This document shows positions 3,634 through 49,158 of a stretch of 64,000 bases of DNA, in pieces (position 1 is the first letter of the stretch; every line of letters begins with the position of its first letter). Source of the stretch: Methanobacteriota archaeon (lineage in GTDB: Archaea > Thermoplasmatota > Thermoplasmata > SG8-5 > DAIRED01); assembly GCA_043799545.1 (NCBI GenBank), contig JAZDNO010000006.1, positions 128,001 to 192,000 of the forward strand, read 5' to 3'. Under the pieces are notes generated by a model. The model searched no databases. It was not told where the DNA came from and saw nothing but the letters and a program-made list of their open reading frames with translations. Position numbers and translations under genes: made by a program.

Positions 3634-3758
3634 CACGTTCCCCAAGTGCGAAGCCTCCTTCAAATTCGCAACAGGATTTAGTGGTTTTGTGAGGATATAA
3701 GCATATTTGTAAAGCGGTGCCGGGAAGCGCTGAAATGCATATCGTAACCAGCGACATC

Positions 3759-3770
3759 TATATATATATA
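3759..3770. promoter_or_regulatory. (TA)6 bidirectional TATA-box candidate between the divergent GT-C gene and the pilus operon
   Basis: TATATATATATA in an AT-rich intergenic region between divergent starts at 3633 and 3832. Confidence 0.55.
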
Positions 3771-3831
3771 ATAGGCTATAATTGGTAAAGCGCGAGCCTA
3801 GCCAAGGAAATAAGTTTTGGGGCTTGAGAAG

Positions 3832-4764
3832 ATGTATAGAGGAAGGCGAGGAGAGGGTGGGCGCATAAACCCCTCCCCGAGATGGGGGAGCGAGGGTGTA
3901 GCTTCCACCGTGGGAACGATAATGGCCCTGATGGTTTTCATGGCGATGCTCTCCGTCTTCACTAACCAGTACGTCCCGGTCTGGATGGAGGACAACGAAG
4001 CGAAGCATATGAACGTCGTCGAATCCCAGATGGGAATGCTCAAGCACGGGATTGACACGCAGATACTGGTGGGCCAGCTCGGTGGCGCCACGGACATCTC
4101 GGTGTACAGTCCCATTACACTGGGTTCGGAGGGCGTTCCGATGTTCGCAGCCCCGACTCAGGGTTATCTGGACGTGCTCCCGGACAGGGGGCGAAGCACG
4201 GTTAATTTCCAGTTCGACCCCAACCCCACGGACCCGACCAGCACACCGGTATCGATTACCTCCTCAAGCACCGGCAGCATAGCCATGGAAGCCCCGAACC
4301 GGTACTACGTTCCGCAGATACTCACATACGAGAACGATGCAATCATCCTCAAGCAGGGCGATGGGGTCATCATGAAGAGCGTTCCCCAGTTCAGTGTGAG
4401 GCAGGAGGGCAACAACTTCCGCGTCTCCTTCACGCAAGTCACTCTCTACGGTGTCAATAAATCGTACGTTGGAAGCGGGACGACCGGGGTGCACACATCC
4501 CTGAGGTACACGAATTCCAGCACGTACAACAACCTCACGACAGATGTCACGATAACGATAACGAGCACGTACGCAAACGCATGGAATGCCTATTTTAGCG
4601 ACTACTTGCCCAGAGCGGGTCTCCTTCCGGCGGAATACACGATAGTGCTCAATCCCCCGTTGGCGCCCACACAGCTTGTTCTCACGCTGCGTATGAACTC
4701 TTTCTCCAGCGTCACGGTGAACCAGGCGTATTTCGAAATCCTCATGGGGGAGGTGGGCGAGTAA
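3832..4764 (+). CDS. archaeal type IV pilin-like protein (minor pilin)
   Basis: Class III signal-like SEG|VASTVGTIMALMVFMAMLSVF followed by YVP.W..DNE..HM..V..Q. First gene of the ATPase/TadC operon; its TAA overlaps the next ATG. Confidence 0.8.
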   Translation: MYRGRRGEGGRINPSPRWGSEGVASTVGTIMALMVFMAMLSVFTNQYVPVWMEDNEAKHMNVVESQMGMLKHGIDTQILVGQLGGATDISVYSPITLGSEGVPMFAAPTQGYLDVLPDRGRSTVNFQFDPNPTDPTSTPVSITSSSTGSIAMEAPNRYYVPQILTYENDAIILKQGDGVIMKSVPQFSVRQEGNNFRVSFTQVTLYGVNKSYVGSGTTGVHTSLRYTNSSTYNNLTTDVTITITSTYANAWNAYFSDYLPRAGLLPAEYTIVLNPPLAPTQLVLTLRMNSFSSVTVNQAYFEILMGEVGE

Positions 4765-6446
4765 TGGGCCTGAAAGAATCGTACATTGGGGCGGTGATGA
4801 AGGCCGGTTCAAAGAAGATAAAGAAGATGGTCCCCAAAGGCGAGCTGGTCCTGGAGCAGGATTGGAAGGAAGGCCGCGGTTCGCCGCTCTCCCCAATACC
4901 AGAGCTGACGAAAACGACGATGGAGGAGCTGGAGCTGGCTCCGATCAACCCTCCGTTCAGCTATTCGAGGATATTTTACGATTCCGAGACCGCAGAATAT
5001 ATATATCAGACCATAGAGCCCCCGATGAGCGACAAGGAGCTGGACCTGCTCCGCCTGATAAAGGACTCGTTGGGCCGGACTCTGGAGTACGAGCTGGACA
5101 AAATGGGCAACAAGGACAAGGAGGAGTACCTGAAGCGCAGCATAGAGAGCTTCCTGAAAACGCGCAGCCTCAGGATAGACCCCCAGTCAAAGGAGAAGAT
5201 TGTGTATTACATAGTCAGAGACTACGTTGGCTACGGCCCGATAGACGTCCTGATGTCGGACCCAAAGATTGAAGATATTTCGTGCGACGGCGTCAACGTC
5301 CCGCTTTTCATATTCCACCAGAAGTACGAATCGATCAAGACGAGCGTCAAGTTCCCGAACGAGGCGGAGCTGAACAGCTTTGTAGTCCAGCTGGGACAGA
5401 GGTGCGGCAAGCAGATTTCCGTCGCCACGCCTATCTTAGACGGTACGACTGGCGAGGGCCACCGCGTCCAGGCGACGTACTCCCGCGAGGTAACGACCCG
5501 CGGCTCGTCGTACACCATCCGCCGTTTCAAGGAGAAGCCTTTCACTCCGGTGGAAATGATAAAGTTCAACACCGCGAACGCGGAGATGATAGCATACATG
5601 TGGCTGGCGGTCGAGCACGGGAAGTCGATGATAATATGCGGCGGCACGGCGAGCGGAAAAACGGCCACTCTCAATGCGTCCGCCATATTCATCGCCCCTG
5701 GCAAGAAGATAGTCACGATGGAGGATACGAGAGAGATTAACCTTCCTCACGAAAACTGGATTCCGGGCACGACGCGCACGGGGGTGGGGGAGCGCGGGCC
5801 GGACGGGAAGGCGCCAGGCGAGATAGACATGTTCGAGCTCGTCAGGGCGGCGCTGAGGCAGAGGCCGAACTACATCATCGTCGGAGAGGTTCGTGGAAAG
5901 GAGACCTCGACGATGTTCCAGGCGATGGCTACGGGTCATACGACATTCTCGACGATGCACGCCGACTCGGTGAAGAGCATGGTGACAAGGCTGGAGAACC
6001 CGCCAATCAGCACGCCCAGGATTCTCTTGACGGCGCTGAACTTCGTCATCATCCAGCTCCACGTCCGAGTCAAGGACAGCGAGGTCAGGCGTATCACCCA
6101 AATAGTCGAATTGGTGGGATTCGAGCCCGAAACCAACGAGCTGATAACCAACACGGTCTACGAGTGGGACCAGCGCACGGACTCTTTCATCTACAAGGGG
6201 CACAGCTTCATCCTGGACGGTCTCATGGAGATGAAGAACATGACCCACGAGGAGATGCAGCGGGAGTTCACCCAGCGCGTGGACGTCATCAAGTATCTGG
6301 TCGAGAAGGACATCACGGATTACAGGGAGATAAACAACCTTATCGTGCTTTACTACAAGGATGCCACGGCGACTGTCACCAAAATAAGGGAGGAAATGGG
6401 CTGGACAGTCCAGGTCCAGATGGAGGGCGGCGAAGTTGGCGCATGA
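4764..6446 (+). CDS. type II/IV secretion/pilus assembly ATPase (FlaI/TadA/VirB11 family), copy 1
   Basis: DPKIEDISCDG, YTIRRF, Walker A GGTASGKT, Asp box TMEDTREI, ALRQRPNYIIVGEVRG, His box TGH..FSTMHA. Confidence 0.95.
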   Translation: MGLKESYIGAVMKAGSKKIKKMVPKGELVLEQDWKEGRGSPLSPIPELTKTTMEELELAPINPPFSYSRIFYDSETAEYIYQTIEPPMSDKELDLLRLIKDSLGRTLEYELDKMGNKDKEEYLKRSIESFLKTRSLRIDPQSKEKIVYYIVRDYVGYGPIDVLMSDPKIEDISCDGVNVPLFIFHQKYESIKTSVKFPNEAELNSFVVQLGQRCGKQISVATPILDGTTGEGHRVQATYSREVTTRGSSYTIRRFKEKPFTPVEMIKFNTANAEMIAYMWLAVEHGKSMIICGGTASGKTATLNASAIFIAPGKKIVTMEDTREINLPHENWIPGTTRTGVGERGPDGKAPGEIDMFELVRAALRQRPNYIIVGEVRGKETSTMFQAMATGHTTFSTMHADSVKSMVTRLENPPISTPRILLTALNFVIIQLHVRVKDSEVRRITQIVELVGFEPETNELITNTVYEWDQRTDSFIYKGHSFILDGLMEMKNMTHEEMQREFTQRVDVIKYLVEKDITDYREINNLIVLYYKDATATVTKIREEMGWTVQVQMEGGEVGA

Positions 6447-7461
6447 GACCGTCGATGCCTTCAGAAGCCTGGAGGCGAAGGACCAGCACCTCAAGACGAA
6501 GCGCCTTCGCTCGGACGAGGAAAGGGAGGCCGGGCCGCACGTGGTCCTGCTTCCGAAGGGCGCGGTGCCGGAGTACATCAAGCTCACTCCGTACCAGGAG
6601 TTCTGCTGGCGCACCATGGGCAACTACGTCAAGCGTCGTGGCATGAGGGACGAGTTGATGGAGGAGAACCTCGTGAAGGCGCATATGAAGATACGCCCCG
6701 AGGAGTACTTCGCGCTCATCTACATGACGACCATTATAGCGGCCATAGGAGGCGTCGTGGCTGGCACTGTCATGGCAATATTATTCTTCGTGGTTTTCAC
6801 CACCACCGCCATGGTGCTGGGTATTATGTTGACCGTGCTGCCCCCAATCTTGATTCCCATTCTGGTATTCAACGTCCTCAAGGGCTCGCCGAAGAGCAAG
6901 GCGAAGGGCCGCGCGCGGAATATTGATAAAAGGATGGCCAGCGCGATGAGCTTCATTTCCGCGATGGCATCGGCGAACGTTCCCATCGACGTGATATTCA
7001 AGGAGCTTGGAAGGCAGCCAGTCTACGGCGAAATCAAGTCCGAGGCCGAGTGGATTACCCGTGACACGGAGCTGCTGGGTGTTGACATCATCACCGCCGT
7101 CAAGAGCGGCTCCCTGCGGTCGCCCTCGACGAAGTTCCAGGACTTCCTCCAGGGCGTCGTCACAACCACGACATCCGGGGGCCAGCTGAAACCGTACTTC
7201 ATGACGAAGGTGGACCAGTTCGAGAAGGAAGACAAGCTTTTGATGAAGCAGACTATGGAAACGCTCTCGATGCTCGCAGAAAGCTACGTGACGGTCGTGG
7301 TCGCGTTCCCGCTTTTCCTTGTCGTCATCCTCGCGATTATGGCAATCATAGGCGGCACGGCGGCGTCGACTGTAATGATACTATGGCTGGTAGTGGGACT
7401 GATGATTCCGATGGCTATGTTCGGCTTCATATTCGTGATTTGGAACATCAGCCAGGACTGA
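6436..7461 (+). CDS. type II secretion system F / TadC-like pilus platform membrane protein, copy 1
   Basis: TM pair, then I(D)..M..AMSFISAMASA...E..WI.RD.ELLG.D, SPS.KFQDFLQG and two C-terminal TMs. Lies between the ATPases. Confidence 0.92.
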   Translation: MAHETVDAFRSLEAKDQHLKTKRLRSDEEREAGPHVVLLPKGAVPEYIKLTPYQEFCWRTMGNYVKRRGMRDELMEENLVKAHMKIRPEEYFALIYMTTIIAAIGGVVAGTVMAILFFVVFTTTAMVLGIMLTVLPPILIPILVFNVLKGSPKSKAKGRARNIDKRMASAMSFISAMASANVPIDVIFKELGRQPVYGEIKSEAEWITRDTELLGVDIITAVKSGSLRSPSTKFQDFLQGVVTTTTSGGQLKPYFMTKVDQFEKEDKLLMKQTMETLSMLAESYVTVVVAFPLFLVVILAIMAIIGGTAASTVMILWLVVGLMIPMAMFGFIFVIWNISQD

Positions 7462-7465
7462 TAGC

Positions 7466-8506
7466 ATGGCCAAACAACAGCAGCAGATGACCAATGAGGA
7501 GATGAAGAGGGTCGTGATGTCGACCAAGCGCGACCTCACCAGGGTAATCCTTGGCGTCAGCATAGCCGTGGCTATGATATTCGTCATCCTCGGCGTCCTT
7601 AACCTGACCAACCCCCAAGAGTTCGATCACTCGATGAAGGCTTTGAAGCTCAAGGACACCAACCTGGACGGCAGGATAGACTATCTGGACATCAACGCGG
7701 GTTACGACAGCAACGGGGACGACGTTCCAGACCAGGGTGAGTACCCCATCAAGCGCTTGGCCAACTTCGTGGTTTTCGCGATGATGGTCATGATAGGGCC
7801 TTATGCATTCTACAAGTCGAAACAGGATGCCAACATAGTCGCCATCGAGCGCAGGCTTCCAGAGTTCCTCAGGGACGTGGCGGAGGCCGGGCGCTTCGGC
7901 ATGACCCTCGCCGACGCCATCGTGGTCGCCGCCAACGGCCGCTACGGCAAGCTTACCATCGAAATCAAGAAGATGGCCGCGCAGATAGAGTGGGGCGTGC
8001 CCGCCTCCGAAGCTCTGAGGCTCTTCGCGGTGCGCATCAACACGCCGGGCGTAAACAGGCTCGTGGCTGTCATCATCAAGGCGAGCGATGCGGGCGGAAA
8101 CGTCGCCGACGTTCTGACGATGGTGTCGCACGACGCTCGCGAGACGCAGCTGTCGAAGGACGAGCGGGCGATATCGATGAGCACGTACCTGGCGGTTGTT
8201 TACATCTCTTTCTTCGTTTTCCTCGTGACCATCATCATCTTGAACGCGACGTTCCTACCGAAGATACGCGAGGCGGGAACGATGGTCACCAGGGCATCGG
8301 CCGAGGCGGGGGTTTCCGGCGGAATGGCAACGCTGGACGTCACGGTCATACCCCAGATTGAGCTGGCGTTCTTCGTCTCATCGATGATTCACGCGGTCGG
8401 CGACGGCATTATGGCCGGCGTGCTGACGAACGGAAAGGTGGCTGCCGGACTGAAGCACTCGTTCATCCTTCTGCTCCTGGGATTCGTCGTCCTGCAGGTG
8501 ACCTGA
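7466..8506 (+). CDS. type II secretion system F / TadC-like membrane protein, copy 2
   Basis: IERRLPEFLRDVAEAGRFGMTL, QIEWG, GGNVADVL and C-terminal TMs. Carries an extra Asp-rich loop DTNLDGRIDYLD..DSNGDD. Confidence 0.92.
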   Translation: MAKQQQQMTNEEMKRVVMSTKRDLTRVILGVSIAVAMIFVILGVLNLTNPQEFDHSMKALKLKDTNLDGRIDYLDINAGYDSNGDDVPDQGEYPIKRLANFVVFAMMVMIGPYAFYKSKQDANIVAIERRLPEFLRDVAEAGRFGMTLADAIVVAANGRYGKLTIEIKKMAAQIEWGVPASEALRLFAVRINTPGVNRLVAVIIKASDAGGNVADVLTMVSHDARETQLSKDERAISMSTYLAVVYISFFVFLVTIIILNATFLPKIREAGTMVTRASAEAGVSGGMATLDVTVIPQIELAFFVSSMIHAVGDGIMAGVLTNGKVAAGLKHSFILLLLGFVVLQVT

Positions 8507-8516
8507 GGTGAGATGA

Positions 8517-10268
8517 ATGGCGTCCGAGTCCGCGTTGGAGGAAAAGGGGAAGCCCGAAGCCCAGGCCGTGGTGGAAGACGACCAGGCCGTCGACGAGAGC
8601 GGTTTCATGCAGGCGGTGCATTCCGCTCGCGCCAAGCTCGCCAAAAGGATGATGGGCGAGGGCAAGGGCTACAAGATAATGAATGCGAAGGTGGACGACT
8701 CCTTCAAAGGCGAGGTCACAACCATACCCAAGCTAACTGACAAGCACATGAGCGAGATAGAGATTGTGCCGGCTATCAAGGGATTTTCGTACATCCGGAT
8801 TAAGTACGACAACGTTTCCAACGAGTACATCTACGAGGCAATCGAACCGCAGCTCAGCAGCGAGGAGGAGAACCTGCTCTCCATTTTCAAGGAGATACTC
8901 GTGGAGGCGCTGGAGTTTCTGGCGGACACCAGGGTGGAGGCTAAGGAGAAGTACCTCAAGGGGGCCGTCTCCAGCATCCTGGCCGACCTCGGCATCACGC
9001 TCAACCCAGCCTCGAAGGAGCGCATCACCTACTACATCATGAGGGATTTCATCCGCTACGCGGCGCTCGACGTGGCAATGATAGACCCCGAGGTGGAGGA
9101 CGTATCCTGCGACGGAGTGAACGTTCCGATATATATCTATCACAGGAAATACGGCTCTATCCAGTCGAACATCCGGTTCAAGACGGCCCCGGAGCTGGAC
9201 AGCTTCGTCGTCTGGCTGGCCCAAAAGTGTGGCAAGCACATCTCCGTCGCCGAGCCTATGCTCGACGCGACTATTCCAGACGGCTCGAGGCTGCAGGCCA
9301 CGCTGGGGATGCACGTCACCAAGCGCGGCTCCTCATTCACAATCCGCAGGTTCAAGGAGAACCCTTTCACCCCGCTGGACCTCATCCGGTTCAAGACCAT
9401 GTCGCTAGACATGATGGCTTACCTCTGGCTCTGCATCGAGAACGGGAAATCGATGCTCGTATGCGGAGGCACTGCGAGCGGTAAAACGACCACGCTCAAC
9501 GCGATTCTTCTGTTCATCCCGCCTCAGATGAAGATTGTCAGCATCGAGGACACGCGCGAGCTGAACCTCCCGCACGAGAACTGGGTCCCGACCCTGACCA
9601 GGGCAGGTTTCGGCGGGAAGAACCCGGTGACGGGAAAGGCTGCTGGCGAGATAGACATGTTCGACCTGCTCACGGCCGCGCTGAGGCAGCGCCCCCAGTA
9701 CCTGATGGTCGGCGAGGTCCGTGGTTCGGAGGCGTACGTCGTGTTCCAGGCCATGGCTACGGGCAAGACCGCATACACCACGTTCCACGCCGAAGACGTC
9801 CAGTCGATGGTCCACAGGATGGAGAACCCGCCGATATCGCTGCCGAGGGCGCTAATCGGGGCTCTGAACCTGGTGATGATGCAGGCACAGGTGAAGGTTG
9901 GCACGAAGATGACGAGGCGCGTCAAGTCCCTCACGGAGGTCGTGGGCATGGACCCCGAGACGAACGAGCTCATTACGAACTCGGTCTACACGTGGAACCC
10001 GGCGGACGACACGTTCAACTACTCCGGTCACAGCTACATTTACGAGGACATCACGATGAGGAAGAACTGGTCCCCGAGGGAGATGCAGCGCGAGGTCAAG
10101 CGCCGGATAGACGTTCTATCGTGGATGAGCAAAGCCAATATGAACAACTACCGCCAGGTCGCGAGGATTGTCTCCGGGTACTACAAGGACAAGGACCGGG
10201 TCATCGAGGAGCTCAACAAGTACGCCGCAGACGAAGAGGCTAAGAAGGCTGCGGCCCCGAAAGCGTAG
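8517..10268 (+). CDS. type II/IV secretion/pilus assembly ATPase (FlaI/TadA family), copy 2
   Basis: DPEVEDVSCDG, FTIRRF, Walker A GGTASGKTT, SIEDTREL, ALRQRPQYLMVGEVRG, TTFHA. SD GAGGTGA upstream. Confidence 0.95.
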   Translation: MASESALEEKGKPEAQAVVEDDQAVDESGFMQAVHSARAKLAKRMMGEGKGYKIMNAKVDDSFKGEVTTIPKLTDKHMSEIEIVPAIKGFSYIRIKYDNVSNEYIYEAIEPQLSSEEENLLSIFKEILVEALEFLADTRVEAKEKYLKGAVSSILADLGITLNPASKERITYYIMRDFIRYAALDVAMIDPEVEDVSCDGVNVPIYIYHRKYGSIQSNIRFKTAPELDSFVVWLAQKCGKHISVAEPMLDATIPDGSRLQATLGMHVTKRGSSFTIRRFKENPFTPLDLIRFKTMSLDMMAYLWLCIENGKSMLVCGGTASGKTTTLNAILLFIPPQMKIVSIEDTRELNLPHENWVPTLTRAGFGGKNPVTGKAAGEIDMFDLLTAALRQRPQYLMVGEVRGSEAYVVFQAMATGKTAYTTFHAEDVQSMVHRMENPPISLPRALIGALNLVMMQAQVKVGTKMTRRVKSLTEVVGMDPETNELITNSVYTWNPADDTFNYSGHSYIYEDITMRKNWSPREMQREVKRRIDVLSWMSKANMNNYRQVARIVSGYYKDKDRVIEELNKYAADEEAKKAAAPKA

Positions 10269-10318
10269 CGCTAGCCATTGTAACAAATTGAAAATAAAAA
10301 GGTTTTGCAGGTTATTAT

Positions 10319-17080: not shown

Positions 17081-17168
17081 TTCTTCACCCCTCTGTATAT
17101 CCTTTCAAAGTTCCCGCGCAACATCATACCATACAATTTAGTCGCTTGTATAGTAGTAAAAGTATCCG

Positions 17169-17178
17169 TATATATATA
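17169..17178 (-). promoter_or_regulatory. (TA)5 TATA-box candidate for the 2253-aa gene
   Basis: TATATATATA about 90 nt upstream of the ATG at 17080, directly after the peptidase stop. Confidence 0.45.
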
Positions 17179-17179
17179 G

Positions 17180-20158: not shown

Positions 20159-20164
20159 CGGCCC

Positions 20165-25516: not shown

Positions 25517-25520
25517 TTGC

Positions 25521-28500
25521 TCACCCCAGTATCGTGTTGCCCCTAACTTGCACGTCGTCAACGTAGAAGCCGCCGAAGCCCACGGTGTTGCTCTTGTATG
25601 CGTAATAGCCCGCGACGCTGTTGGTGACCATCCTGAACCTCAGCATTATCGCGTTGCCGCCGAACGACGAGAGGTCGACGTTCAGGCGCGTTAGGGAGCT
25701 GGCGGAGACCCAATAGTTGCCGGAATCGATTCCGCTGTAGGACCTGTCCGGCGTGTCGTCCTTTCCGTCCGAGAGGTCGCCTTCGACCCCCGAGACGTTC
25801 CAGGCGGCGCGGACGCCCAGGTTGATGGCGGACCAGCTCAGGCCGTTGTCCTTGCTTATCTCGACCCTGAAGCCGTCCGGCGGCGCGCCGTCCGCGGTGT
25901 TGATGTTGAACTTGAAGTAGGCGCTGAGCGTCGCGCTCCTGGCATTGGTCAGGTCGATGGGCCCGCACATCAGCGAGTTGTCTATGCCCTTCTTCATGTA
26001 GCCAGTGGCGCTGTCGCCGTTCCACCAGGCGTAGGTGCCGCTGTGGGCGGTGTGGAGCATCGTGCCTCCGGGGCCGTACGCCCATCCGGACGTTACGAGC
26101 CTCCAGGCGTCGGCCGTGACGTTCTCCGCATTGCCGCGGGCGACCGCGACCTTGACGTCGTCTATGTACCATCCGTAGCCCGTCCCGCCGCCGTACTGGT
26201 AGTACTGGAACCTGACGCGGACGTTGCTTAGCGGGTTGTAACCGGCGATGCCCGTCTGGTTGACCCACGGCAGGAGGTCGACGCTGACCTTCTCCCAGGC
26301 AAACGTTCCGCGCCCGCTGACGCCGTTCCAGCCCCACTGCATGAACGTTCCCATGCTGTCGGACCTCAGAGCTCTGGCGGTCACGTTGGCCGCGTCCGCG
26401 CCGTTGAACAGCCTCAGGTTGCCGGTGTATGCGCTGCTCGGGACGACGTAGCGCCACTTCCAGGCGCCCACGGCGCTCTCCTTGTACCCGACCATCAGGA
26501 CCCCGCCGTTCACGCCCGGCACCATGTTGTACTTGTGCCAGAAGCTGAGCGTTGCCGTTTCCAGGTTGGTCAGGTTCATTCCCTTCGTCACCGCGGACTT
26601 GTTGGAGTTCGGACCGGCGGGGGAGAGGCCTGGAATGGAGGAGCCGGTGCCCCCTCCTCCGGAGGATGCCGCCCCGGTGGTGAATGTCCACGAGTACGGT
26701 GTGCCGGTCAGGGGGAGCCCGTCAGCCGAGTCGGAGCCGGCCGTGACGGTGACAGTGTATGTGGTCGAGTAGGCGAAGGCCGTGTGGGCTATCGTCAGGG
26801 CGGTGTTTCCGCTCGTCCAGGCGTTGGCAAGCCCGCCGGGGTTCGGGTTGACGGTGTAGGCCACCGTCCCGGTGCTCATCGCCTTGCTGAAGACTATGCC
26901 GATCGAGGTGGTGATTCCGACACCCGTCGCGCCGTTGGACGGCGAGACGTAGACTATCGACGGGGCCGTCGGGCCCGAGGCGGTTGTGAAATGGAATGGG
27001 TTCGGGGCCGCGCTATAGCCGCCGATGGAGATGTCGTCTATCGCCCAGCCGTCGTCGTTGCCGCTTCCGTCGCTGGACATCCAGAACCTGATGATGATGG
27101 ACTGGCCGTCGTAGGCCGAGAGGTCCACCGTGTCCTGCTGCCACACCCCCCAGTCCCCGGTCCAGCCCTGGCTCTGGCCGTGCTTGGTGTTGTAGTCTCC
27201 GTTGCCGTCGATGCTCGCGTCCCAGCCCTGGCTCGGCAGGTTCGGGGCGGCCAGGTTCCAGGTAGTTCCGCCGTCGTTTGAGACCATGACGCACCCGCCG
27301 TCGTAGTTGTTCTCGAACTCGAAGTAGTTCCAGAACGTCATCACGGTGCTGGAGGAGCCGGCAAGGTTGAAGGACTGCTCCAGCCAGTTGTTCGCGTCGT
27401 CGTCATAGTTGTTGTTCAGGTCCAATTCGAGGCAGTTGGAGCCGGAATGTGGAGCTATGCCTGGGTCGCTCGGGTCCCCCCGCTCCCACTCGTCCTGAGT
27501 CCCGCCATGGCTCCAGCCGTCCCATCCTGCCTCGAAATCGGTCGCGTGCAGGGTGATGCTGGTGCCGCCGGACAGTGGCACGCCCGCCTTGGAGCTGCCT
27601 CCGGTAATAGTGAACGTGTAGAGCATGGCGTAATCGAAGTTCGCGTGCGTGTAGGTTGCGACCGTGTCGCCGCTGCTCCACGATACCGCCCAGCCGCCCG
27701 GGCTGGGGGCGCAGGTGTAAGTTACGGTTGCGATGTTCATGGGGACGCTGAATGCGACGGATACTGCGGCGTTGATTGCTATTCCGGTGGCCCCGTTGGA
27801 CGGGTACGTGTAGGTTATGTAGGTGCCGACCGAGGGTACGGCGGTGGCGAAGGCCCAGACCGGGCCGTTTGTCGTCGCCGAACCGTCGTTGGCAATCACG
27901 TACCAGTAGTAGAGGGTGGATGCCGCAAGGGCGGGAGATGTGGTCGTCGCCGCGATGTCGTTCGCGACTAGAACGGTCGGCGGGTTTGTCGTTCCCAGGT
28001 ACACGTCGTAGGTCAGCGGGTCGCCGTCCGGGTCGCTGCAGGTCCAGGATAGGGCCGAGGTCGTCGCCACGTTCACGGTTCCGTCGGCCGGGCTCGGGTT
28101 GGACGGCGCGTTCGGCGGCAGGTTGGGGCGGGTCCAGCGGAAGCCCTCGATTCTGGTGTCGTACGGGGTTATCCCCCAGTATATCCTGTCGTTTCCAGCC
28201 CCGGCCGAATTGGCTATTAGATAGTACCTGACTGTCCACATATTGTTGTCTAGCTGGCTAGCCCCGAGTTGCTCGGTCGTGAACGTCGCCCTCAGGGTCG
28301 CTGGCGGGTTTGTGTTTCTGTCGGCGTATACCCTGACAACGATGGAATCTGTGGACGCAAGGCCAGTTGACGGAGGGGTCCATGTAGCCGAGTATATTCC
28401 TGCGCCATTGGCGGTCACGGAAGCTATCGCGGATACGGCGCCGGTTATCTGCGTTTCCGCCCCTCCCGACGAACGTTGGTACACGCGGATTCCAGCGTAC

Positions 28501-31500
28501 ACCGTACCGCCGTCGCCCATCGAACCAGGGCCCGCCTGAGTGCCAGACTGCGTAGTACCAAGCGAGTAGGCGGTCAAACCGTTCACATTCGCCTCCAAAT
28601 TCACGCCTCTCATGTACCTAGTCTCTGTGACCGTCGCCAATGGAGCCGGCCCCGGGAAGGCCCGCGTCCCAGGCTGCGGACCGGAAACGCCCTGCGTCCC
28701 CGGCGGAGGGTTGCCCGAGCGGGTGATGTTCTGGCCGGAGAGCTGGGTGGATATCTGGGAGAATATAAACTGGAAGATGGTGCTCAAGTTGCTGCTCGCA
28801 GCTTCATAGAAGTACTGGCCGTGAATGCCTTTCTGGACGGATGTATTGGCTATCTTCCAGAGGTCGTATTCGGTTGTGAACGGCGCCCATGCCTCTGTCA
28901 TTGTTGGCGAGTGCGGGTTGACTCCTAGCCCCACGGTGTAGACGATTGCGGGGGCGTAGATGAGGCCGGTTCTCGACTGTCCTGCCACGTTTGTGGTGAC
29001 GTCGTACACGTCAGGGTTGTCGGGTTCTCCGTTGCCGCTGTCGGCGGTGTTTATATCCGACCAAGCGTACGCCCCTGCCCTGTACCGGTAAACATCGTGT
29101 CCGTTCGTTCCATCTACGTTGTCATAGCGAACCGTCGTGTCCCCCCATTTAAGACCGGCTGCGCGTCCCCACGAGGATGTCGACCACAAACTCCCGACCT
29201 CGGAGCCTGGGCAGTAGTACTCGCTCCCCTCTTCGTTATTGTCACCGCCCCACCCATCATCTGGACCGTAGTCGTCCCCGTCCGTCAGTGCAACGAGCAC
29301 CTGTACATAATCTGAGCCAGCAGTTCCTGTGGCTCTTGGATTGTTCTTAACGTAGTTTAAGGAAAAACCTATAGTGTCCCAGATGGGGGTATAGGTGTTT
29401 GTGAAAAAAGCAGCGTTGTCGATTGTGGTGTTGAACGATGTTCTGTTGGCCTGCACCATCCAGGCGAAGGTTCTGGCTTGATTGTATGTGGGGTCGCCAT
29501 CCGTAGTCTGGAAGTTATACAGGGTGCACCGATCCGTCGAGCCCAGCTTCGCTATAAAATCCTTAGCAGCGTTCCTTGCATTGGTGAAATCAGTACCACT
29601 CATACTTCCACTCGAGTCTATAACTATCGCAACATCCATCGGTACTCTTGTCGTAGTCGTTGTTGTCGTACTCCCCGCCGGCTCCTGCAGCCAGTACGAC
29701 TTGTCGAAAGTGTGGTAGAAGCCCGCGTCCGTGCTGTTCGTCACGTTAGTGTAGGGCAGCCCAGTGAGCGGGTTGACGAGGGCGCGGTCCCAGTCCTTCT
29801 CGATGTTCATCGAGACCACGGTCCCGGAGATGTAGTCCAGCGGCTGCTCGCCGTTGATGAGCGTGACGGTGCTGTCGTGGTTCCATTTCGACTCGCCGTT
29901 CTCCATGTCGTCGTAGAAGAAGTAGACGTAGGTCGGGTAGGAGATGAGATTGTTGAACCACTCGATTATCTCCCCGGTCTCGTTTATCGGGTCCACCAAC
30001 ACATACAGGGTGCGCTGCCCCGCGAAGAGCGGCGTCCAGATGACCTCCGCGGTCGTGAAGCCGGCGGGCGACACGGTTATCGAGTCCGAGCCTATCTGGG
30101 TCGTCCCGTCCATGAAGCGCACCAGCGCGTTCCCGCTCGTTCCGCCGGTGTTCTGCACCTTCGCCTGGAGCACGTACGAGTCGCCGAGCTGCGGGTTGAC
30201 CGCGGCTCCGGACGCGACCTTGACGCCGTCTATGAAGAAGTCCGTGAGGGCCGTGCGAAGCTCCACCCGGAGCTCCGGCAGGCCGAACCAGCGCAGCACC
30301 ATCTGCGCGAGCTCGGCGCTCGCGTTCGCGTTGCCCGGGAACTCCGAGGAGCCGTTGAGGTCCTGGAACGAGAACGATGTAGTCACTGACTTGAAGCCGC
30401 CCGTCGAGATGTTTACGGCGTTGAACCAGGACCCGTTGTAGGGGAACATCCCCCTCGCCAAAAACGTCGGGAAGATGGCCTGGCTGGTTCCGGCCTTCAG
30501 CCTGTACGACGTGCCGTGGGTGATGTTGTGGCCGTCCACCCCCGCTAGGGACGCGGGCGCGACCACCGCCGCGGCCGATGCAACCCCCAGGTAGTTCTGC
30601 TGGAAGACGCTGGCCCCGGTGTTCAGGCAGTTCCTTCCGACCAGCCAGAGGCATCCACTGTTGTTCAGGTAGGCGCCGAGGTTCGTCGTGTCAGCAGGCA
30701 GCAGCGGGTTCGCCGCGTTTCCCGTGGACCATATCACCACGTTGAAGTCCTTCATGTAATCAAAGATTGGTCCGGGCTGGCCCGGGAGGACGGACCACGA
30801 CTCGTTGAAGTGGCCGAGGCGCGTGAGCGCGTTCCTGATGGCGGTCGTCTCGTTCCCTGGCGCAATGTCCGTCTCGTCGTCGTCTACGACAAGTATGCGG
30901 AACTGGACGTTGATTGTTCCCGAGGCGAGATAGTTAGACACTACGTTGTTGTTCTCGTTGGTCTCCGTAATCAGCTTGTCGGGGTCGACTTCGAGGACTA
31001 TGGTGTGGTACCCGACCAGTACGGGCGTCCAGACGAACGGCCCGACAGAAATCCAGTTCGAGCCGATCGTGTTGCTCACGGTAATCTGGATGTCCGGGAT
31101 GATGCCCTGGTCGTTCAGGGGCATGCCGTTGTAGTAGATTGTGAGCCTCACGGACGAAGTTTCGAGCTGCATTCCGTTGTTGCGGACTATGCCGGAGATT
31201 TGGACGGGCTGGCGGTAGTAGACGACGTCTTTATCTATGGTCTGTTCGGATATGGCGAGGTCCCGCCCGAAGGAGGTGTTGATGTTGCCGAGCCAGCGTA
31301 TCACCTGGTAGGCGAGCTGAGCCTGGTCTGACGTGTCTTTAATCCTGGAGAACGCCCAGGGAGTGAAGTACGTTCTGGTGTTGTTGTTGATGTCGAATCC
31401 GACTCCGTAGCAGTCGCCGGTCGAGGTGTTGACCAGGGAGTTGAACGACCTGGGGTCTGCCCCCTTGTTGATCGCCCAGCCGTTCGTGAAACCCGTCTTG

Positions 31501-33188
31501 CGCGTGACGATGTCTATGCCGCCCCCGTTGAGGTATCCTGTCACGTTGTCCGACGGGCTCCCGCACGTGAGGTAGGTAGCCATCGAAGTCCTGTTTATCG
31601 CCCCGCCGCCTATGCTGAGGTTGGACTGCAAGAACGCGTTGATGCCCGGGTTGGCGGTGTCTGCGAGGATTCCCTGGCCTATCAGCCAGAGGCTGCCGGG
31701 GTTTAGACCGACTCCGAGGAACCTCTTGAGGTTGGTAACATCGTTGCTCGTGAGGGTGTTCCTCGTCGAGTAGCCAGTCATCCACACGACGACGTCGTAG
31801 TTGACCATCTTGAAGTCCCCTGTGCTATACCCCGGCCCGTCGCCCACGGCGACGCTGGTGAAGTCGTAGTCGAAGTTGCCCGCGGACAGCGCCGCCCTCA
31901 TGAAGCTCGACGTGTCCTGGTCGGTTTTGTCGTTCGGGTAGCCGTCGTCGTCGACCACCAGTATCGTCGGCTGCACTGTGACCGTGATGTTTGCCTCGTG
32001 GTTGGTGAGGTCCTCATCCGGCACGCCCGGGTCTGGGATGAGTTCGACGACCAGCCTGTGCTCCCCGCCGTACGCTGGAATCCAATCGTGCGCGGTCACA
32101 TCCGTGCTGCCGCCGTTCGGCGGAACCTGGACGAAGCTGATGTTGTCTATGATGTTCTTCGGGTTTGACCTGAAATTCGCCTCCGTCGTGTTGTCCCAGA
32201 ATACGACGGATATCATCGCCCCCTCTGCTCCCCAGTTGTATATCGTTGCAGTGATCTCGGCCTTCTTGTTGTGGACTAGCGAGCCGTACCCGAATGTGAT
32301 GTTGGTGTCGTTGTACCAGCCAGGCGGTCCGGTCGGCCTCTGCACTATCGCCAGCTCGGACTGCCCGGTGAAGTCCCCGCCCAGGGGGAGGTAGACGACC
32401 TTGCTGGAATGGGCTCCGTCGATATCTGTGGCATTGAATGTGGCCGGGTGCATCCCGCGCTGGTAAAGGGCGCTGTCATACGGACCGGTCGCGGTGCCGG
32501 TGAATGTTCCGTCCTGGTCCGGGTCGCTGAGATGGACCTCGCCAGCTCCAAAATAAGTCATGTCAGCCCAAACGGTCGAGGGGTTCAGGTTGCCGTCGAA
32601 GTCGACGACCCTGACCGAGATTGTGAATTCCGCACCGTACTGGATGAAATTGTGGTCGAGGTCGTCGAACCTGGATGTGACGCTCGCCGACATTATCACC
32701 GGCGGGTAGTTGCGCGCGCCGGTCGGCTTCAGATCGGCCTGCCAGACGATTGCGCTCCTGTCCTCGGCGACTATCAGGACCGAAACTCGGGAGGAGGCGT
32801 CGATTACCCCGGCCCCGATTGTGTAATGCCAGGTCTCGCCAGTTTCCCAGTCCTCGTCCCCGTCGCCGTCGATGCCGGGCGTGGTCCTGTGCGAGCTGGA
32901 TGTGTCGCCGATGATGAGCACGATGTCCGTCCACGTACCCATGAGGACTATTCCTCCCTTGTTGGTGACGTTGACGTAGGCCCCCTGGGTCCAGTCCCCG
33001 GGGGAGACCTCCTCAAGGGTCCCCTCCAGGGACGTGTTCACGCTCGCCGTGGGCGTCGGGATGTTCCCGACCATGAATATGACCCCCGAGAACAGGACCA
33101 CGGTTATCGCCAATATCAGCAAGGTCCCTACGACTTCCGAGACACCCTTCTTGTTCCACATGCGCTTGTTGTCAAAATGCCCGCTCAT
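25521..33188 (-). CDS. giant type IV pilin-like adhesin A (about 2555 aa): CARDB, vWA, Ig-like and jelly-roll (MAM-like) domains
   Basis: KKG|VSEVVGTLLILAITVVLFSGV class III signal. MIDAS DSSGS near 29610. PPNAPSNPSPADG and two PSNGATG Ig-like starts. Paralogous to adhesin B. Start could be 33197, 33194 or 33188 (SD GGGGTGA favours 33188). Confidence 0.9.
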   Translation of the reverse strand: MSGHFDNKRMWNKKGVSEVVGTLLILAITVVLFSGVIFMVGNIPTPTASVNTSLEGTLEEVSPGDWTQGAYVNVTNKGGIVLMGTWTDIVLIIGDTSSSHRTTPGIDGDGDEDWETGETWHYTIGAGVIDASSRVSVLIVAEDRSAIVWQADLKPTGARNYPPVIMSASVTSRFDDLDHNFIQYGAEFTISVRVVDFDGNLNPSTVWADMTYFGAGEVHLSDPDQDGTFTGTATGPYDSALYQRGMHPATFNATDIDGAHSSKVVYLPLGGDFTGQSELAIVQRPTGPPGWYNDTNITFGYGSLVHNKKAEITATIYNWGAEGAMISVVFWDNTTEANFRSNPKNIIDNISFVQVPPNGGSTDVTAHDWIPAYGGEHRLVVELIPDPGVPDEDLTNHEANITVTVQPTILVVDDDGYPNDKTDQDTSSFMRAALSAGNFDYDFTSVAVGDGPGYSTGDFKMVNYDVVVWMTGYSTRNTLTSNDVTNLKRFLGVGLNPGSLWLIGQGILADTANPGINAFLQSNLSIGGGAINRTSMATYLTCGSPSDNVTGYLNGGGIDIVTRKTGFTNGWAINKGADPRSFNSLVNTSTGDCYGVGFDINNNTRTYFTPWAFSRIKDTSDQAQLAYQVIRWLGNINTSFGRDLAISEQTIDKDVVYYRQPVQISGIVRNNGMQLETSSVRLTIYYNGMPLNDQGIIPDIQITVSNTIGSNWISVGPFVWTPVLVGYHTIVLEVDPDKLITETNENNNVVSNYLASGTINVQFRILVVDDDETDIAPGNETTAIRNALTRLGHFNESWSVLPGQPGPIFDYMKDFNVVIWSTGNAANPLLPADTTNLGAYLNNSGCLWLVGRNCLNTGASVFQQNYLGVASAAAVVAPASLAGVDGHNITHGTSYRLKAGTSQAIFPTFLARGMFPYNGSWFNAVNISTGGFKSVTTSFSFQDLNGSSEFPGNANASAELAQMVLRWFGLPELRVELRTALTDFFIDGVKVASGAAVNPQLGDSYVLQAKVQNTGGTSGNALVRFMDGTTQIGSDSITVSPAGFTTAEVIWTPLFAGQRTLYVLVDPINETGEIIEWFNNLISYPTYVYFFYDDMENGESKWNHDSTVTLINGEQPLDYISGTVVSMNIEKDWDRALVNPLTGLPYTNVTNSTDAGFYHTFDKSYWLQEPAGSTTTTTTTRVPMDVAIVIDSSGSMSGTDFTNARNAAKDFIAKLGSTDRCTLYNFQTTDGDPTYNQARTFAWMVQANRTSFNTTIDNAAFFTNTYTPIWDTIGFSLNYVKNNPRATGTAGSDYVQVLVALTDGDDYGPDDGWGGDNNEEGSEYYCPGSEVGSLWSTSSWGRAAGLKWGDTTVRYDNVDGTNGHDVYRYRAGAYAWSDINTADSGNGEPDNPDVYDVTTNVAGQSRTGLIYAPAIVYTVGLGVNPHSPTMTEAWAPFTTEYDLWKIANTSVQKGIHGQYFYEAASSNLSTIFQFIFSQISTQLSGQNITRSGNPPPGTQGVSGPQPGTRAFPGPAPLATVTETRYMRGVNLEANVNGLTAYSLGTTQSGTQAGPGSMGDGGTVYAGIRVYQRSSGGAETQITGAVSAIASVTANGAGIYSATWTPPSTGLASTDSIVVRVYADRNTNPPATLRATFTTEQLGASQLDNNMWTVRYYLIANSAGAGNDRIYWGITPYDTRIEGFRWTRPNLPPNAPSNPSPADGTVNVATTSALSWTCSDPDGDPLTYDVYLGTTNPPTVLVANDIAATTTSPALAASTLYYWYVIANDGSATTNGPVWAFATAVPSVGTYITYTYPSNGATGIAINAAVSVAFSVPMNIATVTYTCAPSPGGWAVSWSSGDTVATYTHANFDYAMLYTFTITGGSSKAGVPLSGGTSITLHATDFEAGWDGWSHGGTQDEWERGDPSDPGIAPHSGSNCLELDLNNNYDDDANNWLEQSFNLAGSSSTVMTFWNYFEFENNYDGGCVMVSNDGGTTWNLAAPNLPSQGWDASIDGNGDYNTKHGQSQGWTGDWGVWQQDTVDLSAYDGQSIIIRFWMSSDGSGNDDGWAIDDISIGGYSAAPNPFHFTTASGPTAPSIVYVSPSNGATGVGITTSIGIVFSKAMSTGTVAYTVNPNPGGLANAWTSGNTALTIAHTAFAYSTTYTVTVTAGSDSADGLPLTGTPYSWTFTTGAASSGGGGTGSSIPGLSPAGPNSNKSAVTKGMNLTNLETATLSFWHKYNMVPGVNGGVLMVGYKESAVGAWKWRYVVPSSAYTGNLRLFNGADAANVTARALRSDSMGTFMQWGWNGVSGRGTFAWEKVSVDLLPWVNQTGIAGYNPLSNVRVRFQYYQYGGGTGYGWYIDDVKVAVARGNAENVTADAWRLVTSGWAYGPGGTMLHTAHSGTYAWWNGDSATGYMKKGIDNSLMCGPIDLTNARSATLSAYFKFNINTADGAPPDGFRVEISKDNGLSWSAINLGVRAAWNVSGVEGDLSDGKDDTPDRSYSGIDSGNYWVSASSLTRLNVDLSSFGGNAIMLRFRMVTNSVAGYYAYKSNTVGFGGFYVDDVQVRGNTILG

Positions 33189-33225
33189 CGGCATCACCCC
33201 TAGCTATGGTACTCAAATCGGGCTC

Positions 33226-33237
33226 TATATATAAATA
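33226..33237 (-). promoter_or_regulatory. TATA box of the giant-pilin operon
   Basis: Minus strand reads ATATTTATATA about 30-45 nt upstream of the start. Confidence 0.6.
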
Positions 33238-33288
33238 TGTAAGGTGGTTATAATCAAGCAATAATCAGGAAAAGGGGTTTATTAGGTC

Positions 33289-34488
33289 TTATATCACGCG
33301 CTTTTTCGACACCTTTTTCACGGACACTGGAGGGGAGGATTCTATCTTCTCTCCGCAGGCGTAGCACATCACAGCGTCCTTGGCAATCATGGTCCCGCAG
33401 GACGGGCACGGTATCTCGTCGCCCTCGGGCGCCGCCTCCTCCTTCGGGGCCTCCTCGCCGCCCATCTTGGACCCGCAGGCGTAGCACATGACCGCATCCT
33501 TGGCGACCATCGTTCCGCAGGACGGGCAGGCTACCTCGTCGCCTGAAGCGGCAGCCTCCTCCTTGGCCGGCGCAGCGCCCATCTTCGCGCCGCAGGCGAA
33601 GCACATGACGGCGTCCTTGGCGACCATCGTTCCGCAGGACGGGCAGGCTATCTCGTCGGCGGACGGCTCCGGGGCCGGCGCGCTCTCCTCAAGCTTCACT
33701 TCGGGCTCTCTCTGACTTTCCGGCTCAGGCGCCCTCTTCGGAGCCGCTGCCGCCCCGCCGGCCTTAAGCTGCTCCTCGCGCTCGAGAAGCTGGCGCTCCT
33801 TTTCCATGAGGCGCTTGCCGTCGGCGATGATCTTCTGCTTCGAATCGTTGAGGGCGGCCTCTTCCTTGGCCAGCATCTTCTCGCGCTCGACAAGCTCCTT
33901 GGCCTTGGCCACGTACTTGTCTATCGTCTCCTTGACCTCGCTCTCCCTTGCGAGGAGGCCTTCCTCCCTCGAGACGATGGCGTTGCGCTTCTTCTGGAAG
34001 TCGGCGTGGTCTGCGCGCGCCCCTTCCTGTAGGGTGAGGACTTCCTTCTCGCGGTTGGCGACGTCCTTCTCCTTTGCGACGACCTTTCCCCTCTCGACCT
34101 CAACAGACGCGAGCTTCTGGGCCGCGTCCTCTTCGCGGGCCTTCAGGCCCTTCTCTGTCTGGGAGACCTTGAACTCGCGGTTTTTAATCTCGGTTTCCTT
34201 GGTCTGGATTGTGGACTTTTCTTTGGCCAGGGCTTCGGTGTCCTGGGCGAGCTTGCCCTGCTTGGACGAGAGATCCTTTTCCTTTTCCTGAATCTTGCCT
34301 TCCTGGTCCTTCAGGCCGGCCTCCTTCGAGGCCAGCTGGCTCTTCTCGTTCTCGAGCGCCGCCCGCTCGGATTCCAATCGCGCTTCAGTGTCAGCGATAA
34401 ACTGCTCTTTCTGGCGGAGCTCCTGGTCCTTCGCCTGAGCTGCTTCCGCCTGCTTCTTCATTATCTCCCAAATCGGTTCATCGGCCAA
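33289..34488 (-). CDS. long coiled-coil protein with three C-terminal Zn ribbons
   Basis: About 250 aa of E/K/A-rich heptads, then three copies of CPSCGTM(V/I)AKDAVMC(F/Y)ACG. TTG start with an SD-like GGGGT upstream. Confidence 0.85.
   Translation of the reverse strand: MADEPIWEIMKKQAEAAQAKDQELRQKEQFIADTEARLESERAALENEKSQLASKEAGLKDQEGKIQEKEKDLSSKQGKLAQDTEALAKEKSTIQTKETEIKNREFKVSQTEKGLKAREEDAAQKLASVEVERGKVVAKEKDVANREKEVLTLQEGARADHADFQKKRNAIVSREEGLLARESEVKETIDKYVAKAKELVEREKMLAKEEAALNDSKQKIIADGKRLMEKERQLLEREEQLKAGGAAAAPKRAPEPESQREPEVKLEESAPAPEPSADEIACPSCGTMVAKDAVMCFACGAKMGAAPAKEEAAASGDEVACPSCGTMVAKDAVMCYACGSKMGGEEAPKEEAAPEGDEIPCPSCGTMIAKDAVMCYACGEKIESSPPVSVKKVSKKRVI
33355..33657. repeat. three ~60-bp intragenic repeats (period about 117-120 bp) encoding the Zn ribbons
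   Basis: GCAGGCG(T/A)AGCACAT...GCAGGACGGGCA starts at 33355, 33475 and 33592. Confidence 0.9.
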
Positions 34489-34555: not shown

Positions 34556-34669
34556 TGGTTCAAGCCCGGTCTGCGGCATGAAATAATTTGTCACAGCTAT
34601 CTATGGTGCAGGAGACTTGAACTTGCAGAACTTGTGATGGACGAAGGGCGAATCTTTCTGCGGTTCAAG
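34556..34669 (+). repeat. orphan diverged inverted copy of the tRNA-Phe 3' end plus fold-back array
   Basis: TGGTTCAAGCCCGGTCTGCGGCAT..CAGCTAT..GCAGGAGACTTGAACTTGCAGAA..TTCTGCGGTTCAAG aligns to the reverse complement of 1488-1606. Confidence 0.85.
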
Positions 34670-35378: not shown

Positions 35379-35585
35379 AGGCTCCACCCCAAATCTTGGA
35401 AATGGGATATTGTTTGTCCCTCTTAATCTTATCGCCCCCGGCCCCAATACGGAAAATTTATGAAGGGGCGCACCATGGCAGTGATGCCACAGACTATACA
35501 GCACCGAGGTGACAGGAGCAACGAGGCAATCGTCAGGAAGCATTTTCTCGTTGCGACTGAACCTCGGCAGGGCAAATTGTATGGT

Positions 35586-35656
35586 GCCGAGGTGACAGAG
35601 TGGCCATGTGGCAGACTGCAGATCTGTACACGGGCGTTCAAATCGCCCCCTCGGCC
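35586..35656 (+). tRNA. tRNA-Cys (GCA)
   Basis: GCCGAGG-TG-ACAGAGTGGCCATGT-G-GCAGACTGCAGATCTGT-ACAC-GGGCGTTCAAATCGCCC-CCTCGGC-C folds as a cloverleaf with anticodon loop CTGCAGA. Confidence 0.93.
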
Positions 35657-49019: not shown

Positions 49020-49158
49020 GGCAATCTTTCCTCCGCCTTTGACCCGGATGGTGAATATTCGTCGAACGTAATAATATTTGCTTTTCGGTCAAGCGCTCTT
49101 TCATTTTCGGCAACCCCGGGCAAACCTTATTACCGCAAGCGCCGTACGCAAGTGGCTT

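Follow-up and report, generated by a model that had tools for sequence, protein, structure and literature searches.

Introduction

Can an archaeal type IV pilus machine carry adhesins of 1,783 and 2,555 residues that are themselves pilins? The question is raised by a locus in a metagenome-assembled genome of the order SG8-5 (Ca. Proteinoplasmatales), which comprises 2.06 Mb in 31 contigs and is 94% complete. The locus lies in a stretch of 64,000 nucleotides (G000:C10:128001-192000 in our numbering of genomes and contigs), hereafter the window. In textbooks, type IV pilins are small subunits. We consider that the two giant proteins of this locus, pilin A and pilin B, are probably modular minor pilins, which would display adhesins at pilus tips. 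The locus may be read as two units, a pilus machine that is found throughout the Thermoplasmata and an accessory operon that would be inserted between its parts. In this operon, the genes of the two giants are joined by that of a membrane-anchored dual peptidase (M14A/C11).

Every gene that a first-pass annotation of the window had listed for this locus was found in its place, with the gene called GT-C-like as the weak point. The genes are real rather than chance open reading frames (ORFs), because orthologues of each occur in conserved order in other genomes. That annotation had proposed an undescribed adhesion system, and this proposal stands in part. On the one hand, the giants apparently belong to a large undescribed family. 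On the other hand, the operon of two ATPases, a split platform and a DUF7289 protein occurs across the class and is already in the literature (PMC4858521, PMC12448462).

Pilin features of the two giants

Both giants scored above the cut-off of the family Pilin_N (PF07790; 25.2 bits), with 39.1 bits for pilin B and 30.4 bits for pilin A. They begin with a charged leader, which is followed by Gly, by VSEVV and then by about 25 hydrophobic residues. The leader reads ...WNKKG/VSEVVGTLLILAITVVLF in pilin A (KKG/VSEVVGTLLILAITVVLFSGVIFMV) and ...WDSGG/VSEVV in pilin B (SGG/VSEVVSTILILGLTVLLFSSIIAFV), where the slash marks the predicted cleavage site. The consensus [KR]..W[DE]..G/VSE[VI][IV]GTIL.L.ITVVLFS was present in 18 of 18 orthologues from the genomes of ten relatives of the order, and the class III motifs were conserved in both paralogues in each orthologue examined, in the order as well as in family f15 (families of the class are labelled with f-numbers). 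The earlier prediction that the giants start with class III pilin signals was borne out by the profile scan and by the orthologues, and on their sequences the giants are class III signal-peptide proteins.

An AlphaFold2 model of residues 4-334 of pilin A, built on a 20-sequence alignment, gave a helix at 16-41 followed by two beta-sandwiches, with a predicted local distance difference test (pLDDT) score of 73.7. This order of a helix and then beta structure is a pilin layout. Beyond the N-terminal helix, no hydrophobic segment of similar strength was found in either giant. The leader and alpha-1 helix of pilin A are 47% identical to those of a small PilA-like pilin on contig C7 of the same genome.

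The rest of the giants is modular. In pilin A, alpha-1 is followed by the two beta-sandwiches (52-270), CARDB (646-754 and about 1005-1080), a vWA domain with a metal-ion-dependent adhesion site (MIDAS) at 1188-1311, Big_5 (about 1794-1872), MAM (1932-2058), Big_5 (2077-2174) and a MAM-like module (2385-2552). Pilin B has the alpha-1 helix, two beta-sandwiches, CARDB, vWA with MIDAS and a C-terminal InhA-like MAM. The MIDAS is complete in both, with DSSGS at 1194, TPIWDT and LTDGDD in pilin A, and with DNSPS at 1171, TAIWDA and LTDGFD in pilin B.

Modular pilins were defined by Raynaud et al. (2021) in bacteria only, including a vWA pilin, and the largest has 860 residues (PMC8179133). Considering that they combine a pilin module with domains foreign to type IV pili, the giants share this build through their CARDB, vWA, InhA-like MAM and Big_5 domains. 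The N_methyl family was absent among their Pfam matches at E 0.01 or better. Judged in this way, the giants resemble modular pilins in working but fall outside the bacterial set, having Pilin_N and no N_methyl. In Streptococcus sanguinis, PilB (pilin and vWA) and PilC (pilin and lectin) likewise have a binding module grafted on a pilin, the vWA also carries a MIDAS, and an adhesive tip location has been proposed (PMC8179133). The background statement of the first-pass annotation, that bacterial tip adhesins with vWA domains are not pilins, leaves out this PilB. The giants differ from the bacterial modular pilins in having Pilin_N instead of the N-methylation motif, in their roughly ten modules against one, in a length 3 to 5 times greater and in their conserved peptidase partner. 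PilY1/PilC and TadG/CpaL are also large vWA adhesins tied to a type IV or Tad pilus, but PilY1 is a non-pilin with a C-terminal beta-propeller, and no propeller domain was detected in the giants.

The Glu at position +3 after the predicted cleavage (G/VSE) is near-invariant in the giant family, and Pro stands there in the small pilins (G/VSP). This difference may reflect a different position or role in the filament.

Size of the giant pilin family

When 1.84 billion representatives were searched with a profile built on the N-terminal module, 2,846 proteins matched with an E value of at most 1e-3 and 209 with one of at most 1e-30. A class III motif lies within the first 80 residues of 133 of the 146 top representatives; among these, 87 are 1,000 residues or longer and 12 are 2,000 or longer, up to a maximum of 3,280. 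This is a family with hundreds of clusters in which archaeal pilin heads stand on adhesins of 1,000-3,280 residues, against the 860 of the bacterial survey. A literature search found no description of giant archaeal pilins or of DUF7289. In other families of the class, the same pilin module is fused to FG-GAP repeats (an integrin-alpha-like propeller) in proteins of 1,200-1,400 residues that are unlinked to the machine (Table 1).

The giants and the dual peptidase

The reverse-strand genes are transcribed in the order KaiC-like protein, coiled-coil/zinc-ribbon protein, pilin A, pilin B, M14+C11 peptidase and a 2,253-residue surface protein. The gaps are only 4 nucleotides between pilin A and pilin B and 6 between pilin B and the peptidase, so we consider the two giants and the peptidase to be one transcription unit.

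The peptidase has a signal peptide and a C-terminal transmembrane segment (893-911), followed by a basic tail. The residues of an M14A enzyme (H88xxE91, H220, VTVEIG) and the C11 dyad (H437 in WDHGN, C476 in LDLCWG) are present. The best solved relative of the M14 domain, which has no pro-segment, is carboxypeptidase T (1.4e-39). The C11 domain matches PF03415 (1.3e-34) and the clostripain-related structure 6n9j (1.7e-9). This peptidase may digest captured material or process the adhesins.

We examined 22 genomes of the order SG8-5; among the relatives, contig C110 of G012 is LSSH01000110.1, 'Candidatus Proteinoplasmatales archaeon SG8-5'. A giant was matched in 22/22 genomes at E 1e-10 or better. 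The block of pilin A, pilin B, peptidase and 2,253-residue protein is syntenic in G002, G005, G006, G010, G014, G016 and G019, while contig ends interrupt it in G013 and G021. In nine SG8-5 relatives, and likewise in families f5 and f15, the peptidase lies downstream of the giants, and the triad of giants and peptidase is the most conserved block. The adjacency of the giants to a type IV pilus machine, which had been noted in the window, was also found in relatives. The machine converges on the giant block in G002, G016 and G021 (contigs C20 and C5), like in the window, and the block of giants and peptidase adjoins the machine in G000, G002, G016, G021 and G022, which represent three of the four SG8-5 families and f5. 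Family f5 (G022) has the full arrangement of the window, with one giant of 2,713 residues (Pilin_N/CARDB/vWA) and the peptidase. In family f3, a single DUF7289 gene stands divergent beside the giants; in G005, G006 and G007, where the block does not adjoin the machine, DUF7289 accompanies the giants.

Of 301 genomes sampled, 217 had the pilin module; this tally includes the unpublished genome G109, on which no particular claim depends. The C-terminal half of the platform was found in 59 of 71 class genomes sampled. Both the module and the split platform were missing from the sampled genomes of families f9 and f20. The co-occurrence of module and platform is real and phylogenetically clustered, and we take it as weak evidence.

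The pilus machine

The forward-strand genes form a tightly packed operon of DUF7289, ATPase 1, platform-N, platform-C and ATPase 2, which converges on the reverse-strand cluster with 50 nucleotides between them. The gene order is kept in 13 further families. DUF7289 lies beside the machine in 11 of these 13; in f12 no match was found beside the operon, and in f5 and f18 the gene is elsewhere in the locus.

The first gene encodes a DUF7289 protein (PF23960, 31.2 bits against a cut-off of 27), the Atlas clusters that match it are DUF7289 as well, and 20 of the order's 22 genomes have one copy of the gene. Its predicted leader, MYRGRRGEGGRINPSPRWGSEG/VASTVGTIMALMVF, is class III-like (W..[ED]G/VASTVGTIMALMVF), and W..[ED]G/VASTVGTIMA is invariant in 20 orthologues. 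The AlphaFold2 model (pLDDT 84) shows an N-terminal helix of 65 residues and then a beta domain. Foldseek gave no match to this model at E 0.001 or better, and VIA-align, run on 48,161 chains, returned no Z above 4, with many bacterial pilins in the top rows but below any safe threshold. A public gene call starts this gene (window 3817-4764) at residue 32 of the ORF with GTG read as Met, and the leader is lost. The pilin nature of DUF7289 would be missed by automated annotation because this public start removes the class III-like leader.

ATPase 1 has the Walker A motif GGTASGKT and a canonical His box (ATGH...MHA). ATPase 2 is about 48% identical to it and has another residue in place of the first His in its His box (ATGK...FHA). 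The Walker A motif, Asp box and Walker B motif are intact in both. When the window genes were compared with their orthologues in loci L040-L042 and L170-L183, this first His of ATPase 2 was replaced in 16/16 genomes (by Lys in 15, by Thr in family f11), and ATPase 1 kept both histidines in every genome examined. Since the split holds everywhere examined, the duplication would be old and the copies specialised; by these alignments, the two ATPases are ancient paralogues with a functional split. This class-wide difference bears on why the machine has two ATPases.

In terms of classification, platform-N matches positions 18-243 and platform-C positions 316-546 of the 555-position ArlJ profile. 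The machine is not an archaellum by its scores, which were 420 and 431 bits with the FlaI model (cut-off 550) and far below the cut-offs with the ArlJ models. It is not a bindosome (Bas) either, with 211 and 191 bits for BasE (cut-off 1000) and 41 bits for BasF (cut-off 1300). Both ATPases carry T2SSE and PilB3_C, both platform genes carry T2SSF, and a DUF7289 minor pilin is present, as in Clade 2 or System 2 pili. The platform is encoded by separate genes for its N- and C-terminal halves and not by the single gene of the 2026 classification.

Euryarchaeal Clade 2 loci have pilins in trans, a common minor pilin of 250-550 residues, a surface-layer (S-layer)-like protein and KaiC-type regulators; they often have two tadC genes, and Aciduliprofundum has two ATPases in one locus (Makarova 2016, PMC4858521). 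The 2026 census of Sivabalasarma and Albers reported large adhesin-like proteins in System 2 loci (PMC13705601). The window shares with this group, which includes PilB3-PilC3 and PilA1-6 of Haloferax volcanii, the FlaI/PilB ATPases with a PilB3_C end, PilA-like major pilins and prepilin peptidase in trans, KaiC-like neighbours, a minor pilin, an S-layer-like protein with a C-terminal transmembrane segment, two tadC genes and large adhesin-like proteins; the ATPases are likened by domain content alone. It differs in three ways: the large adhesins, with 1.8-2.6 thousand residues, are pilins in their own right, a dual peptidase accompanies them, and the surface protein has a zinc-ribbon cytoplasmic tail.

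A second comparison is offered by the CdiP pilus of Cuniculiplasma divulgatum (Thermoplasmatales), for which two ATPases, a split platform and pilins 500 kb away were established by experiment in 2025; its filaments are adhesive and non-twitching, with hook-like structures at their distal tips (PMC12448462). The window resembles CdiP by layout alone, in the two ATPase genes, the split platform and the distant pilins, whereas no giant pilin or peptidase is reported in that paper, which compares CdiP with Aap (PMC12448462). Searches with the window genes recovered no split platform from family f20, to which Cuniculiplasma might or might not belong.

Components encoded in trans

The first-pass annotation had placed the prepilin peptidase and the small pilins outside the window, and both were found there. 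The genome has a single A24 prepilin peptidase gene (PF01478 and PF06847 Arc_PepC_II) on contig C2 (67819-68718). Three small PilA-like pilins of 149-170 residues, with G/VSPVIATILMVAITVVLAAVLY and an ILxxAITVVL core, are encoded on C7 (two) and C30 (one). The two genes on C7 lie directly downstream of two KaiC-like genes (G000:C7:66813-70364; L044:2813-6364), an arrangement that repeats the KaiC association beside the giants. A six-frame motif scan of the genome recognised five class III proteins, the two giants and the three small pilins, with DUF7289 recognised separately; it found no class III substrate-binding protein.

Two PF00482 (T2SSF) domains are detectable in the genome, namely those of the split platform genes of the window. 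A third, divergent T2SSE ATPase of 613 residues (C10:54085-55926) lies 73 kb upstream of the window machine and is followed by a polytopic protein of 714 residues. The latter has no Pfam match, its nearest Atlas clusters have T2SSF in 12-16% of their members, and on this basis it is probably a divergent platform. These two genes (G000:C10:52080-55926; L043:6080-9926) may form a second machine of the type IV filament (T4F) kind, which we leave unclassified. The idea that the window machine is the only type IV pilus machine of the genome was rejected on account of this third ATPase and probable divergent platform.

The surface protein, zinc ribbons and KaiC-like neighbours

The 2,253-residue protein starts with a Sec-type signal. 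Its ectodomain of some 1,900 residues contains at least six CARDB stretches and is followed by a strong single transmembrane segment (1942-1960) and a cytoplasmic tail of 290 residues with about five zinc ribbons. A homologue with the transmembrane segment and zinc ribbons is convergent to ATPase 2 in families f5, f7, f16, f21, f22, f23 and f24, and lies nearby in f11 and f18. The first-pass annotation had taken this protein as a partner of the giants; its gene neighbourhoods instead mark it as a partner of the machine class-wide. Machine and zinc-ribbon surface partner are, by these comparisons, a known kind of system throughout the class.

The 399-residue protein upstream of the giants has three copies of the zinc ribbon motif CPSCGTMVAKDAVMC.ACG. 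Its ribbons, those of the 2,253-residue protein and those of an 804-residue protein on the left-hand side have only the Cys pattern in common. The KaiC-like protein has a deviant P-loop, GPPGSMKT. KaiC-like and zinc-ribbon genes also precede the giants, in synteny, in G001, G010, G013 and G021. The cytoplasmic coupling proposed by the first-pass annotation, which would run through zinc ribbons and KaiC, is conjectural.

Interpretation of the locus

We propose that a single A24/PibD-type peptidase, acting in trans, would cut the giants after the conserved Gly (G/VSEV). The machine would then take them up, probably along with the DUF7289 protein, as rare subunits that prime the filament or form its tip, and it should be able to do so because alpha-1 of the giants is very similar to alpha-1 of the three small PilA-like pilins. 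In this position, the vWA (MIDAS), MAM, CARDB and immunoglobulin-like (Ig-like) modules would be held away from the cell and bind proteins or particles, and the surface peptidase would digest the capture, or trim or release the adhesins. We infer each of these steps, namely the cleavage of the giants, their incorporation into the filament, their tip position and their ligand, together with the role of the peptidase and of the two ATPases. The window would give the family a physical context, with two giants between a pilus machine and its partner surface protein, in an operon with an active-looking peptidase.

Several observations weigh against this proposal. Foldseek on the model of the pilin module gave generic tandem-Ig matches only, the pilin matches of the DUF7289 structure stayed below threshold (Z 3.6 or less), and among family representatives the -2 residue of the cleavage site is often not Lys or Arg. 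The first-pass expectation that the two operons are conserved together holds to the extent that they are adjacent in four families. In family f3 (G005, G006), a different large contig carries the machine, and family f15, outside the order, has two giants and the peptidase with neither machine nor 2,253-residue protein nearby. The large pilins are unlinked to the machine in most families. In terms of size, a subunit of 2,500 residues cannot fit in the body of a filament, which would leave only a position at the tip or base. Finally, the second pair of ATPase and probable platform would make the window machine the best candidate for the giants and not the only one.

The main rival is a capture complex bound to the cell surface. 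In Sulfolobales, the bindosome consists of class III functional non-pilins that depend on a T4F-type ATPase and platform for nutrient capture. By analogy, the giants would be cut by the prepilin peptidase and stay at the surface, in a short pseudopilus or anchored by their helix, as a capture layer that feeds the peptidase. The triad of giants and peptidase being the most conserved block, and standing in f15 without a machine nearby, speaks for this arrangement. The vWA and MAM domains are protein-binding modules known in protease contexts, and class III proteins that 'functionalise' T4F machines for scavenging have already been proposed (PMC13705601). SG8-5 archaea assimilate protein labelled with 13C, and among their extracellular peptidases M14A is the dominant type (PMC9123169). 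However, the locus has no genes for an ABC transporter or a substrate-binding protein, its cargo domains are of the adhesin type, the BasE and BasF scores are far below their cut-offs, and the small PilA-type pilins lead us to expect true filaments. We therefore regard a bindosome-like complex as not likely. The giants might also form a plain surface coat, in a lineage that lacks a classical S-layer; the N-terminal helix would then be a membrane anchor or export signal, and the adjacency to the machine would reflect a common role in the envelope or chance. A coat would fit with the disordered layer of glycoproteins that stands in for an S-layer in Thermoplasmatales (PMC12448462), with the 26-36 N-x-S/T sequons of the giants, and with the lack of linkage to the machine for most large pilins of the class. 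But the leader and cleavage motif are kept more strictly than an anchor requires, and the leader matches those found in the genome's small pilins and DUF7289 protein. Adjacency of giants and machine recurs in four families, and in f3 the DUF7289 gene moves with the giants, so that we judge a plain coat highly improbable.

The role of the peptidase allows a separate alternative, in which it is a dedicated maturation or release enzyme that trims pro-regions or sheds the adhesins, with no digestive function. Its gene, which begins 6 nucleotides from the end of pilin B, follows the giants in every case, and the enzyme is membrane-anchored beside its presumed substrates, as such a role would lead one to expect. 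Against it, the M14 domain is nearest to carboxypeptidase T, a digestive enzyme of broad specificity, and has no pro-segment, and no conserved cleavage site was identified in the giants; a purely maturing enzyme seems unlikely to us. Going beyond the modular minor pilins that we prefer, the pilus might forage for protein. The giants at the tip would catch detrital proteins or particles, the two ATPases would extend and retract the filament, and the catch would be pulled onto the membrane-anchored endo- and carboxypeptidase. We hold this to be rather improbable; if true, it would be a pilus-based feeding organelle in a lineage that lives on sedimentary protein, as judged by isotope probing. Only a few archaea, SG8-5 among them, have been shown to feed on protein in marine sediment, which makes the locus a candidate for attaching to, and perhaps harvesting, particulate protein.

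Gene layout of the window

The features are listed in Table 1; the remainder of the window consists of housekeeping genes.

Table 1. Positions of the genes of the pilus locus and its neighbours in the window, and of FG-GAP fusions of the pilin module in other loci
Feature	Position	Strand	Basis
DUF7289 pilin-like protein, conserved minor-pilin candidate, first in machine operon	3832-4764	+	PF23960
Assembly ATPase 1, FlaI/PilB superfamily, PilB3_C end	4764-6446	+	T2SSE E 1.5e-34
Platform protein, N-terminal half, one T2SSF domain	6436-7461	+	PF00482 at 2e-11
Platform protein, C-terminal half, one T2SSF domain	7466-8506	+	PF00482 at 5.2e-19
Assembly ATPase 2, PilB3_C end	8517-10268	+	T2SSE E 1e-33
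2,253-residue type I membrane protein, CARDB/transmembrane/zinc ribbon	10319-17080	-	domain and transmembrane prediction
Membrane-anchored dual peptidase M14A + C11, 992 residues	17180-20158	-	M14 7.7e-56, C11 1.3e-34
Giant modular pilin B, 1,783 residues from ATG (ORF 20165-25561, 1,798 residues)	20165-25516	-	Pilin_N
Giant modular pilin A, 2,555 residues (ORF 25521-33197, 2,558 residues)	25521-33188	-	Pilin_N
Cytoplasmic coiled coil and three zinc ribbons, 399 residues	33289-34488	-	conserved upstream neighbour of giants
Single-domain KaiC-like protein, conserved neighbour	34665-35378 (ORF to 35663)	-	PF06745 at 1.3e-32
Second KaiC-like gene	1-714		1.1e-14
Polytopic 'GT-C-like' ORF	1423-4047		sub-cut-off PMT match
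FG-GAP pilin-module proteins	L062:15366-18938, L064:12348-16157, L070:12500-16456, L072:14560-18807		

The first-pass annotation had linked local glycosylation to the GT-C-like gene, a link that we do not retain. The ORF has eight hydrophobic segments, its PMT match (E 0.0075, 16.3 bits) falls below the cut-off of 22.7, and no solved relative was found. No homologue stands beside the operon in any relative examined, and the gene is not conserved with the locus. An apparent conservation in G021 was rejected, the match being an antisense translation of the conserved N-terminus of DUF7289. The ORF overlaps tRNA-Phe (1583-1657) and the antisense strand of the DUF7289 gene start. The long ORF of the KaiC-like gene (34665-35663) runs over tRNA-Cys (35586-35656). 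Since each overlaps a tRNA gene, the true extents of the polytopic and the KaiC-like gene must be shorter, and the start of the latter is likely M96 of the ORF.

An inverted tRNA-Phe-end bracket that had been proposed around the locus was not reproduced in an ungapped search (at least 40 nucleotides, seed 12). The synteny in relatives argues against a recent genomic island, as far as gene order tells. Elsewhere in the window (49078-54555), a Lhr-type helicase of 1,825 residues (DEAD, Helicase_C, WH_Lhr, DEAD_assoc) is fused to an AlkZ-like DNA glycosylase domain.

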